Source of the DNA: an uncultured Acidobacteriota bacterium
Lineage (GTDB): Bacteria > Acidobacteriota > Blastocatellia > RBC074
DNA length: 64,000 nt
Reading direction: 5' to 3'
Assembly (NCBI GenBank): GCA_963796275.1
Contig: CAWCKY010000003.1
Span: 736,001 to 800,000 of the forward strand
This document shows, piece by piece, positions 46,048 to 49,120 of the stretch (position 1 is the stretch's first letter; every line of letters starts with the position of its first letter). The translations under genes and the position numbers were made by a program. The notes beneath the pieces are model-generated. The model saw nothing but the letters and a program-made list of their open reading frames with translations. It was not told where the DNA came from and searched no databases.

Positions 46048-47316
46048 ATGACCACTAATCTTATTAGCCAGTTATCAAGAGAGTTTGGTGGGGATGCCAT
46101 AAACAAGATTGCCGGAGCCCTTGGTGAAGACAGCAGCCGAACGCAGGCTGCAATGGATGGAACATTGCAGGCGCTAGTTGGTGGTCTTGTCAACAAAGGT
46201 GCGACCAGAGATGGAGCCTCCGACCTCCTCGATCTCCTTAAAAGAAATAATCTTGACGGCACTCGTTTTACTAATGTGGCAAGCGCGATCTCGGGACCCG
46301 ATGGAATTTCGCGCATGGTCGAAACCGGTGGCCCGCTACTGAACTCGGTCCTCGGATCGCGTGCCAATTCAGTGATCGATTGGGTAACTTCGCTGGGAGG
46401 AATCAAGAAATCATCAGCCACGTCTCTATTGAGTCTGGCGTTGCCGGTTGTCCTGGGACAGATCGGAAGGTTAGTGAGCAGCGGTGGGTGGAATGTATCG
46501 AGTTTGATGAATCTATTGAACGACCAGAAGAATTATCTCAGGAATATGCCGACCGGATTGACGAACGCGCTCGGATATGGAGGGACAGAGTGGACCGGGG
46601 ATCGTGAGCGTGAACGGCGGGCAGCCCCCTCATATGTAAGCGAACCGATTCGCCGAGAGCGTGAAGGGACGGCTTGGTGGAAGTGGGCGCTGCCTCTGCT
46701 GGCTTTGCTGGCGCTGGGTTGGCTTTTGAGTCGCCTTTTCACCGGAAGAGAACGGCAGGTCCAAACCAATATTGCAGTTCCGACGGCGACCGCTACTCTG
46801 AGGGCCGAAGCGACAGCGACCATTGCACCGACGGGGGCTCCGGGCCGGCCTGAACTCGGTGCATTTATCGATAAGAGACTGCCCGACGGGACGATGCTGA
46901 GAATTCCTACGTATGGCGTAGAGAGCAAGATGCTCGTGTTCATCGAAGACCCTTCAAAGAGAGCTGACCAGGTAACCTGGTTCAGCTTCGATCGCCTGGA
47001 GTTCGAAACAGATTCAGCGACACTCAGGCCATCTTCGATGGAACAACTGCGAAATATCGCCGAGATAATGAAGGCATATCCAAATGTGACCGTGAAGATT
47101 GGCGGATATACGGATAACGTCGGAGACGACGCTTATAACATAAAGCTATCGCAGGAGCGGGCGAATAGAACGATGAATGAGATAGCTAGGCTGGGTATAA
47201 ATCCGTCGCGTGTGACGGCAGAAGGATACGGTGAGCAGCATCCGGTGGCGGACAATGCAACGGAGGAAGGACGTCAACGCAACAGGAGGATAGATATCCT
47301 TATAACCAAGAAATAG
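46048..47316 (+). CDS. DUF937-like N-terminal domain plus TM and OmpA-like peptidoglycan-binding domain
   Basis: Gly/Leu-rich helical N-terminus, WWKWALPLLALL TM, GYTDN..LSQERA and GRQRNRRIDI. Confidence 0.88.
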   Translation: MTTNLISQLSREFGGDAINKIAGALGEDSSRTQAAMDGTLQALVGGLVNKGATRDGASDLLDLLKRNNLDGTRFTNVASAISGPDGISRMVETGGPLLNSVLGSRANSVIDWVTSLGGIKKSSATSLLSLALPVVLGQIGRLVSSGGWNVSSLMNLLNDQKNYLRNMPTGLTNALGYGGTEWTGDRERERRAAPSYVSEPIRREREGTAWWKWALPLLALLALGWLLSRLFTGRERQVQTNIAVPTATATLRAEATATIAPTGAPGRPELGAFIDKRLPDGTMLRIPTYGVESKMLVFIEDPSKRADQVTWFSFDRLEFETDSATLRPSSMEQLRNIAEIMKAYPNVTVKIGGYTDNVGDDAYNIKLSQERANRTMNEIARLGINPSRVTAEGYGEQHPVADNATEEGRQRNRRIDILITKK

Positions 47317-47397
47317 GAGATTGCGGTGTGCAAGGAGTGCGGATTGCGGAGTTTTCTTCATTAACCGGCACTACCGCCAGCACAACTGCAATAAAAG

Positions 47398-47584
47398 ATT
47401 AGCCGGTGATTCAGCTACGTGACAGTAGTTTTGTTGGGGAAAGTACTGTCAAAGCGGTGCTTTGTAACCAAGGGAGGCCAAGACCATTTGGGATTTATAG
47501 GAGTAATGGTTTTGGTGGTTCAGGCACTAGTTCGAAATGTAAGGAGGAGCATTTCGAGCAATGGTAGTTGAATCACCGGCTAAT
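47398..47584 (+). ncRNA. Candidate structured RNA (four-way junction with GGA-rich loops)
   Basis: 21-bp closing stem plus three hairpins; several stem substitutions are G:U on the + strand; no family recognised. Confidence 0.5.
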
Positions 47585-47641
47585 GCTTACGACCGGGGCG
47601 CACGCCCCTGTCCATACGTAACAGACGTAACAGGAGAAATT

Positions 47642-48397
47642 ATGTTTCTGAGAAAGTACCAGATTATTTCAGTTATCATCTGCCTGGTTTCAGCATTGAG
47701 TCTTTCCGCGTTAGCAGATATGCAACAGGAGACCAAGGAGACCAAGCAACCGAAGGAATCGAAGGATACGAAGGAAGGAGCAGATCAGTCGCAAAAAGCC
47801 GCCACGGTATTTAAGGAAATTATGAGCGCACCGGATAAAGCGATCCCACAGAAGGTGTTGAACGGCGCCGAGTGTATCGCTGTCTTTCCGCAGGTGATCA
47901 AAGGTGGCTTTATTGTCGGCGGCCGCGGTGGCCGCGGTGTGGCCAGCTGTCGCACCGCCGGGGGGAGCTGGAGTGCACCTGCATACTTCGGCATGAAGGG
48001 CGGCAGCTTTGGGCTTCAGATTGGCGCAGAGGCGACCGATTTCGTGCTCTTGTTTATGAATGATACCGCGATGCAGAGTTTGCTCAAGAGCAAGGTCACA
48101 CTTGGAGGCGAAGCATCGGTGGCAGCCGGTCCAGTCGGACGCGAAGCCGGCGCCGAGACCGACGCGGCGATGAACGCGCAGGTTCTCTCCTATTCGCGGA
48201 GCAAAGGGGTCTTCGGCGGTCTCGAGCTTAAAGGGACTACGATCACAGCTGAGAAGAAAGTGATTTCTGAATCATACGGTCAAGGGATGACTGCGGAACA
48301 AGTGCTGAAGATGGATAAAAGCAAGGCGCCATCCGATGTCCAGACTTATCCGGATACCCTGACAAGTTACTCTGCAACGAAATCAGCAAAGAAATAG
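47642..48397 (+). CDS. Secreted lipid-binding SYLF (Ysc84) domain protein
   Basis: Signal peptide; KGGFIVGGRGGRG, WSAP, GGSFGLQIG, AAGPVGR and YSRSKG; CAGGAG RBS. Confidence 0.92.
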   Translation: MFLRKYQIISVIICLVSALSLSALADMQQETKETKQPKESKDTKEGADQSQKAATVFKEIMSAPDKAIPQKVLNGAECIAVFPQVIKGGFIVGGRGGRGVASCRTAGGSWSAPAYFGMKGGSFGLQIGAEATDFVLLFMNDTAMQSLLKSKVTLGGEASVAAGPVGREAGAETDAAMNAQVLSYSRSKGVFGGLELKGTTITAEKKVISESYGQGMTAEQVLKMDKSKAPSDVQTYPDTLTSYSATKSAKK

Positions 48398-48430
48398 AGA
48401 ACGAGTATTTGTTTGTATACCCCCGTCGAT

Positions 48431-48490
48431 GCTCGGTGCCCTTAGGTGCCCTTAGGTGCCCCGTTGCCCTCAGTTTGCCCCGTAGCCTTT
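48431..48490. repeat. Degenerate ~10-nt tandem repeat (CTTAGGTGCC)
   Basis: gctcggtgcc cttaggtgcc cttaggtgcc plus decayed copies. Confidence 0.7.
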
Positions 48491-48787
48491 GTGATATAGA
48501 ACGCGGATATGGCCAGAGCGGTCGGTCAATGAGAGATTGGACCAGGAAGGTGAGGTAAGCGATACCGATATTCTGCTCAATTCTCGTTCTATATCACCTA
48601 GGGATTAATGCAAATCAACATTGACATTAATTTACCCAAGAACTCAATTGGGTTTACACACCTCAGCTGACAATATAGAATCCGCTCACCCTCTTAATTA
48701 CCCTTTCTTATTTCAGGCTTGTTGATTCTGGTCAACGTGTCTTTACCCCCACTCGCAAAGTTCTATCTGCGAAAAAAGGAGGTCGGT

Positions 48788-49120
48788 GTGAATAAAACGA
48801 CAATTTTTACTCACATAGGGCGAATCTTCATTGTCGTAATGATTATGACAACTGTCATGCCGAGTTTCGCCATGGCAAACGGCTGGCGCGGCCGCGGCCG
48901 AGACAGGAAGTTCGGTAGGTTTATCAATCGCCATGACGGGCGCCATGGCCGATTCGATGACAGAGGCCCGAGAGGGGACCGGAGGTACGACAGGTGGTAC
49001 CGCGGCGATCGTGGTCGTTGGGACCGAGGTCGTAACAGATGGATGGATTGGGACCGCGATCGATTTGATAGACGGCACCATCACCATGATCGGCGCTTTG
49101 ACCGGCGCAGATTCTGGTAA
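48788..49120 (+). CDS. Small secreted Arg/Asp/Gly/His-rich low-complexity protein
   Basis: AAGGAGG RBS, GTG start, signal peptide ending AMA, then a DR/RW/GR-rich tail. Confidence 0.75.
   Translation: MNKTTIFTHIGRIFIVVMIMTTVMPSFAMANGWRGRGRDRKFGRFINRHDGRHGRFDDRGPRGDRRYDRWYRGDRGRWDRGRNRWMDWDRDRFDRRHHHHDRRFDRRRFW

Follow-up and report, generated by a model that had tools for sequence, protein, structure and literature searches.

A four-way-junction element upstream of a SYLF gene in an uncultured Acidobacteriota bacterium: probably a new regulatory RNA built on old mobile-repeat ends

The locus and the fold of the element

An element of 187 nucleotides (nt) with the fold of a four-way junction lies upstream of a SYLF-domain gene in the genome of an uncultured Acidobacteriota bacterium (GTDB lineage Blastocatellia; RBC074). 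It occupies positions 47398-47584 (+ strand) of the window, which is the whole 64,000-nt stretch of DNA that was analyzed (C3:736001-800000 of a 9.46-Mb assembly of seven contigs), and its genomic coordinates are C3:783398-783584. The source genome, 94.7% complete, is referred to as G000, its relatives as G001 and so on, and extracted loci carry L-numbers. The evidence assembled below indicates that the element is probably a new regulatory RNA built on old mobile-repeat ends. The locus contains the following features.

46048-47316, + strand: gene for a 422-amino-acid protein with DUF937 and OmpA-family domains (PF06078, 1.4e-25; PF00691, 1.3e-21)
47320-47392, + strand: upstream spacer, with ATTGCGG at 47320-47326 and 47343-47349 and GCAAT at 47388-47392
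47398-47584, + strand: whole element, a four-way junction of 187 nt in its minimum free energy (MFE) fold
47398-47418, + strand: 5' strand of the closing stem P1, whose first 11 nt, ATTAGCCGGTG, are the terminus common to Acido-Lenti-1-type doublets (inverted pairs of transposon ends, discussed below)
47420-47451, + strand: hairpin P2, with the conserved loop UUUUGUUGGGGA (fold and alignment)
47456-47528, + strand: long arm P3, with the internal loop AAGGGAG(G) and GGAGG at 47473-47477
47530-47559, + strand: hairpin P4, whose loop at 47541-47548, AAGGAGGA, carries AAGGAGG
47564-47584, + strand: 3' strand of P1, ending in CACCGGCTAAT (fold, covariation and arm alignment)
47595-47608, + strand: small GC hairpin GGGGCG-CA-CGCCCC, 10 nt 3' of the element, not conserved in orthologs
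47642-48397, + strand: gene for a 251-amino-acid SYLF/Ysc84-domain protein (PF04366, 7.3e-35), with its own Shine-Dalgarno (SD) sequence AGGAG at 47632-47636

The original prediction of a closing stem with three arms was borne out by sequence and fold, with all four helices at the positions it had given, and P3 has the AGGGAGG internal loop and, at its apex, the GGGA..AGGAG loop that it described. P1 comprises 21 base pairs with one G:U, and the apical loop of P3 (47489-47504) holds GGGA and AGGAG (47499-47503). The element, with a GC content of 45%, has an MFE of -88.8 kcal/mol, compared to -45.0 +/- 4.0 kcal/mol for 200 dinucleotide shuffles (z -11.03), none of which was as stable.

The element had been proposed as an unannotated RNA candidate, and it falls outside every Rfam family. 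A scan of 46500-48500 at E <= 10 returned four weak unrelated matches, none within the element, and paralogous loci gave nothing relevant at E <= 1. The model of the Acido-Lenti-1 motif, RF01687 (gathering score 37 bits), does not match the element at E <= 10. No record in the plasmid and phage collections searched matches it.

Covariation and strand bias

The helices, first proposed from the window sequence alone, covary among homologs. In the structure-blind MAFFT alignment A5 of 11 sequences, read against the MFE structure of the window copy, standard pairs fill 83.5% of cells; sliding the 3' partners by 1-3 columns lowers this to 30-47%. The alignment has a covariation score of 0.253, versus 0.06-0.12 for slid partners, and none of 500 shuffles reached this value. 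Both-sided changes were found in 24 of 68 pairs, 4-5 of them in each helix, distributed over P1 (helix 1, 5 of 21 pairs, with 93.7% of cells paired), P2 (helix 2, 4 of 12), P3 (helices 3 and 4, 10 of 24) and P4 (helix 5, 5 of 11). These values refer to a structure taken from one of the aligned sequences, and the most diverged rows, C6 and G001, are poorly aligned.

The sense strand is the better-folding strand in all 11 sequences. For the window copy, the fold of the minus strand reaches -64.1 kcal/mol, a difference of 24.7 kcal/mol between strands that is due to the presence of eight G:U pairs and the absence of any A:C pair among the non-Watson-Crick pairs. The whole alignment has 86 G:U versus 31 A:C cells; restricted to the eight well-aligned rows, the counts are 63 and 11. 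The G:U substitutions on the + strand had been taken as a sign of RNA-level selection, and the strand bias fits selection on a sense-strand RNA.

Retention at an orthologous site

A metagenome scan with a pattern of window-type termini returned seven loci, six of which (L191-L196) contain the four-way junction; the element sequence of L196 is identical to that of L192. Five of the six elements lie between homologs of the DUF937-OmpA and SYLF genes, while the contig of L194 ends before the upstream gene. The flanking homologs are 69-81% (DUF937-OmpA) and 66-78% (SYLF) identical, and the elements themselves are 88-89% (L194, L195) or 73-75% (L191-L193) identical to the window copy. In the alignment of the ortholog spacers, conservation starts 2 nt before ATTAG (47398) and stops ~4 nt after CTAAT (47584), and the rest of both spacers has diverged beyond alignment. 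A neutral stretch of 187 nt would be lost at such divergence, and this is the strongest argument that selection acts at the level of the host.

Weaker support comes from environmental Logan contigs of four soil or plant runs, probably of DNA. One contig of 1,883 nt covers 46900-48400; over 1,501 bases it shows 130 differing letters and 33 gaps. Among the differences listed, two lie in the element, a C for T47458 and a G for A47526, and they form one pair of P3, changed from U:A to C:G.

The covariance model R1 was searched across 61 relatives and then across all 87 genomes of the family, and the four-way-junction type was found in only two, G000 and G001, which belong to the same genus. The G001 copy is diverged (44.8 bits versus R1), and its flanks have no match in G000. 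Other R1 matches are GC-rich doublets in G020 and probably in G101 (L142, whose arm has a BLAST match to a GC-rich G000 copy). SYLF homologs of G001, G002, G003, G020 and G029 show 46-65% identity and have no DUF937-OmpA gene before them, so that synteny is absent.

Two further, weakly scoring R1 matches, in G043, were rejected as false positives arising from hairpins of a tandem 9-nt repeat. These loci (L011:1501-1634 and L013:1501-1677) are long hairpins of tandem 9-nt GGGAGTCTT-type repeats unrelated to the element.

The orthologs also bear on coding potential. The original prediction had pointed to an in-frame ATG at 47561; it exists and is in frame with the SYLF open reading frame (ORF), but it is missing from orthologs and was rejected as the SYLF start. 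The start is likely the ATG at 47642, judging from AGGAG 5 nt upstream and a signal-peptide-like N-terminus downstream. A 50-codon open frame runs through the element (47419-47571). Coding by this frame is excluded by the +1 and -1 indels of L191-L193, which shift the frame across P4 and change the peptide (VRRSISSNGS versus EKEEHYPQQS), and by stop codons in paralogs.

The position of the element, 57 nt upstream of the SYLF start and syntenic in six metagenome loci, would suit a ligand-sensing riboswitch or a dedicated SYLF leader, and four-way junctions do occur in riboswitches. In the element, however, the junction nucleotides vary and the apical loops are conserved, the reverse of what riboswitches usually show, and conservation does not extend through the spacer before the SYLF start, which together make a riboswitch unlikely. 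No alternative pairing involves the SYLF SD sequence, and paralogs precede unrelated genes. We regard a riboswitch or leader as very improbable.

Ancestry of the closing stem

The termini of the element are not confined to it. ATTAGCCGGTG and CACCGGCTAAT, 140-170 nt apart, were found at 123 loci or more (at least 123), which among those listed belong, by record titles, to Acidobacteriota, Planctomycetota, Verrucomicrobiota, Victivallales and a few others. The 125 distinct doublets examined are near-perfect palindromes with a GC fraction from 0.52 upward (median 0.61), and their strands differ in folding energy by a median of 5.7 and a maximum of 14.6 kcal/mol. Doublet ends with ~20 nt of outside sequence match RF01687 at 22-35 bits, and G000 contains eight GC-rich doublets together with 16 RF01687 matches at E <= 0.01, of which five exceed the cut-off and none lies at C3:783398-783584.

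The same ends flank a transposase gene. G000 has nine Y1_Tnp (PF01797) loci, one of which, C1:1056706-1057149, lies between inverted copies of these ends; both element termini recur as the cassette ends at C1:1056623 and 1057430. Its product scores 64.6 bits versus the NCBIfam IS200/IS605 transposase model and has the Y---Q--HH signature, which is described for TnpA-Y1 subclass 1.2 (Quentin et al. 2018, PMC6006769). Of 201 genomes sampled from the phylum, 31 have transposase homologs, and 5 of 20 transposase loci scanned have outward-pointing Acido-Lenti-1 matches beside the gene (seven matches, three over the cut-off). In an alignment of ten arms that includes both cassette ends, TTAGCCGGTG is present in nine arms and carries a single substitution in the tenth, ten columns are invariant, and similarity spans ~24 nt. 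In the window-type arm, CCGGTGG..CCACCGG has become CCGGTGATTCAGCTACGTG, which does not self-pair, and the arm hairpin has lost its second half. On the evidence of this alignment with the cassette ends, P1 is by its sequence a pair of degenerate transposon ends.

Several further repeats were observed. The cassette region, C1:1056603-1057700 (L147/L160), carries a 148-amino-acid IS200-like Y1 transposase gene and inverted three-hairpin ends matching the Acido-Lenti-1 pattern, and two more degenerate end copies lie to its right, at ~1057467 and ~1057609. The metagenome locus L190 (1201-1374) has the same P1-type arms, ATTAGCCGGTGAGTCAA and TTGAGTCACCGGCTAAT, around an unrelated AT-rich cargo of 39% GC with an internal tandem duplication, indicating that the arm chassis can carry different interiors. 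L142:1086-1265 represents a separate palindromic repeat family of ~180 base pairs with 30 or more BLAST matches in G000, including C7:609696-610642, C7:276788-276974 and C4:1113534-1113714; a 46-nt sub-repeat cluster of this family lies at C7:609984-610642.

The main rival explanation starts from this ancestry. The element would be a selfish or neutral REPIN/MITE-like DNA repeat (MITE being short for miniature inverted-repeat transposable element), a variant doublet with no RNA function whose structure is kept for a transposase acting on folded single-stranded DNA (ssDNA) from one of the two strands. The element does share its exact termini with Acido-Lenti-1-type doublets and with the transposase cassette, but the arms have lost the defining hairpin, and there is no match to Acido-Lenti-1 at E <= 10. 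The element is multicopy, including a tandem pair, lacks a target-site duplication, as expected for HUH transposition, and shares its arms with L190, whose cargo differs, and its genome is rich in other palindromic repeats; yet the element is restricted to 2 of 87 family genomes, with no plasmid or phage record, and its strand asymmetry of 24.7 kcal/mol is well outside the maximum of 14.6 among the 125 ordinary doublets. One orthologous site was kept while the flanking spacers diverged beyond alignment, and the loops are conserved over covarying stems. Retention and loop conservation of this kind point to selection on each copy rather than on transposition, and we consider the DNA-repeat explanation unlikely.

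The element has the same terminal 11 nt on both sides as Acido-Lenti-1 (RF01687; Weinberg et al. 2010, PMC2864571) with its inverted doublets, and its arms agree with a doublet of that type from the same family at ~18 of 24 positions. The hairpin at 47595-47608 occupies the place of the second hairpin in the Rfam consensus, and both kinds of repeat coexist in G000. The RF01687 motif has an 8-bp hairpin and a GCUAAU-type linker, whereas the element keeps only the GGCTAAT end and the non-conserved downstream hairpin. The doublets are palindromes of higher GC content, in contrast to the element, which has purine-rich loops on an asymmetric interior junction of three arms, is strongly strand-biased in its fold and is kept at an orthologous site. 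Like REPIN/REP-RAYT and other repeats derived from the terminal inverted repeats of tyrosine transposases (Di Nocera et al. 2013, PMC3733652; PMC6006769), the element is an inverted pair of transposase ends forming a long hairpin, without target-site duplication and with a cognate Y1 gene bearing the same ends in the same genome. Unlike them, it has a conserved non-palindromic cargo, a low copy number and a range of one genus, its arms lack the hairpin recognized by the transposase, its strands do not fold alike, and its conservation points to selection at the level of the host.

Paralogs in the source genome

G000 contains four full copies of the element, counting the window copy, and two diverged or decayed copies. 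The five other copies are as follows.

C7:614331-614511: full paralog C7_a, tandem partner of the next copy
C7:614613-614792: full paralog C7_b, in tandem with C7:614331-614511, 101 nt apart
C4:635339-516, minus strand: full paralog
C6:1464755-1464925: diverged copy
~C1:139283-139475: decayed copy

All of the G000 copies fold as four-way junctions; identity with the window copy ranges from 59 to 76% among the copies. In two environmental runs, loose ends at 47585 resemble the downstream flank of the C7_b copy. The genes beside the copies are unrelated between loci: DUF937-OmpA and SYLF; an ABC-2-type permease-like protein (a label that is a reading of the sequence, made without a family search) and an outer-membrane beta-barrel protein; a response regulator and a membrane protein; and a transporter of the bile-acid:sodium symporter family (SBF).

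The flanks of the copies share no direct repeat, so the target-site duplication that is the classical (DDE) mark of a MITE is absent. The original prediction had recognized that the candidate might prove to be a multicopy MITE. This is half right: the closing stem is homologous to the Acido-Lenti-1/Y1 terminal repeats, and four to six copies are present. Against it, deeply diverged relatives keep the element at a single orthologous site, where it is far better conserved than the flanks, which speaks for a function in the host and against a selfish repeat.

Copies in unrelated gene contexts, a tandem pair among them, are also what is seen in redundant families of small RNAs (sRNAs). The element could be a trans-acting sRNA, possibly excised via P1, with G-rich loops that pair with C/U-rich mRNA sites or titrate a protein other than CsrA. 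The conserved single-stranded loops could be seed regions, and a 21-bp duplex closes the fold, which is self-contained. However, all six copies are in sense to both flanking genes and lie between co-oriented genes, an arrangement more in keeping with co-transcription than with genes of their own. Neither a promoter nor a terminator is detectable at the element borders, and no candidate protein partner was identified. A trans-acting sRNA is distinctly unlikely in our estimation.

Loops and Shine-Dalgarno complementarity

The original prediction of GGA/SD-like loops holds in 10 of the 11 homologs. Unpaired columns of the alignment are 44% G, 27% A, 21% U and 8% C. The 16S rRNA of G000 ends in the 3' tail GGATCACCTCCTTTCT, to which the window P4 loop AAGGAGG is complementary over 7 nt. 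The P4 loop varies among AAGGAGG, AAAGGAGG, GGAGGTG, AGGAGG and GGAGG, with 5-8 nt complementary to the anti-SD sequence in 10 of 11 sequences. The internal loop of P3 again carries GGAGG, and its apical loop AGGAG or GGGA. The P4 variants slide along the anti-SD complement without keeping a single fixed word, a pattern that selection for pairing with the 16S tail would be expected to produce.

The leading idea of the original prediction was a sponge that titrates CsrA/RsmA in the manner of CsrB/RsmZ, based on the GGA-containing loops AAGGA, AGGAG and GGGA. CsrB/RsmZ RNAs likewise present several GGA motifs in hairpin loops (3-4 loops in 10 of 11 homologs of the element), but the element has only 3-4 such motifs, which are extended to full SD complements rather than following the A(N)GGA consensus. 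The sponge reading fails because neither CsrA nor FliW was found in the 94.7%-complete G000, where PF02599 gave no match among 42 scored candidates and PF02623 none among two. CsrA and FliW are present in the relatives G001 (same genus) and G029. CsrA of the family adjoins fliW, however, the two genes being ~100 nt apart where present, and the fliW-linked type of CsrA uses a protein antagonist. Moreover, the homolog in CsrA-bearing G001 has lost the GGA loop of P4, and no CsrB/Rsm match was found in Rfam for 46500-48500 (E <= 10) or for the paralog loci (E <= 1). A CsrA sponge is scarcely tenable. The fliW-csrA pair is itself patchy in the family, being located at C1:6391284-6391901 of G029 and on C811 and C1067 of G001 and not found in G000, G002, G003 and G020.

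Proposed function and significance

We propose, with moderate confidence, that the host retains the element as a structured RNA module, with a transposon-end doublet lacking a gene as its chassis. Such a doublet of Y1-transposase ends would have acquired or evolved a three-arm interior, a cargo that is absent from ordinary GC-rich doublets. The element would be transcribed in the sense direction, most likely within transcripts of its co-oriented neighbors, and the RNA would fold as an insulated module. Its exposed loops AAGGAGG, GGAGG, AGGAG and GGGA may bind the anti-SD tail of the 30S subunit or a GGA-binding protein, and such binding could modulate the translation or stability of adjacent envelope-protein mRNAs in a standby or decoy function.

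By analogy, the long P1 duplex is a plausible entry site for RNase III. Correia elements of Neisseria are highly multicopy, with presence/absence polymorphism. They are described as miniature elements whose inverted repeats pair within co-transcribed mRNA, where RNase III can be bound and can cleave or protect them, with control of adjacent genes as a result (PMC2649163). They provide the nearest functional analogy for P1, although their transposon family is unrelated.

A more specific version is that the element is an anti-SD decoy or standby RNA, exapted from the transposon-end doublet and presenting three to four mimics of a ribosome-binding site. It would capture 30S subunits via the 16S 3' tail and either load them on adjacent mRNAs in cis or sequester them in trans. 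We know of no described class of bacterial RNA that acts as a multi-arm anti-SD decoy or standby site, and a search of the literature on SD-like sRNA decoys of the 30S subunit found none. This version is a tentative one that leans toward the improbable.

Several observations weigh against an RNA module retained by the host. The aligned sequences are related, so the shuffle statistics overstate their independence. Six of the 21 P1 pairs are invariant, with sequence conserved far beyond the needs of a stem, and since the P1 sequence is common to mobile DNA repeats, recognition at the DNA level is possible. The substrate of Y1 transposases is a single strand of ssDNA, in which G:T pairs are tolerated, so strand bias alone is no proof of RNA. 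The genes downstream of the paralogs differ, and the next start codon is 6 to 632 nt away; no uniform cis target is therefore evident. The G001 homolog lacks the SD-like P4 loop. A consensus scan of 47200-47750 detected no sigma-70-like promoter, and the same interval contains no sense-strand terminator, the sole terminator-like site being on the minus strand inside P1. Flank alignment and inspection by eye revealed no promoter-like block shared upstream in orthologs. No RNA dataset with the element was identified among the 12 sequencing runs matched (0.04-0.07 of sampled words).

If the proposed interpretation is correct, the element is a well-supported candidate structured RNA from uncultured soil bacteria that lies outside the Rfam models. 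It would be a clear case of an Acido-Lenti-1/Y1-transposase doublet turned into a host-retained RNA module, and a concrete intermediate for the debate on whether such repeats act as DNA or as RNA. Near-perfect mimics of a ribosome-binding site on an insulated scaffold would also offer a testable case of 30S capture or standby. Even as a mere repeat variant, the element would still mark the limits of the Acido-Lenti-1 family.

No description of the element was found in the literature covered. A search with the 12-nt terminus returned no match, and the element is not described in the passages on Acido-Lenti-1 that were covered. Titles and abstracts on REPIN, RAYT and sRNA exaptation contain nothing on it, and a 2026 preprint does not mention RAYT, REPIN or IS200.

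Additional observations

A further inverted repeat was observed upstream of some copies. In paralog C7_a and ortholog L195, a hairpin GATTGCGG-N4/N15-CCGCAATC ends 5 nt 5' of the element. The GATTGCGG/CCGCAATC inverted repeat lies at ~1470-1495 of L002 and ~230-275 of L195, and the window has two direct copies of ATTGCGG. The repeat could be what is left of the ancestral end module's outer hairpin, or else a protein site.

Downstream of the SYLF gene, a 133-codon ORF at 48719-49120 (+ strand) of the window has a C-terminal half of low complexity that is rich in Arg, Asp, His and Trp (RGRGRDRK...DRRHHHHDRRFDRRRFW).

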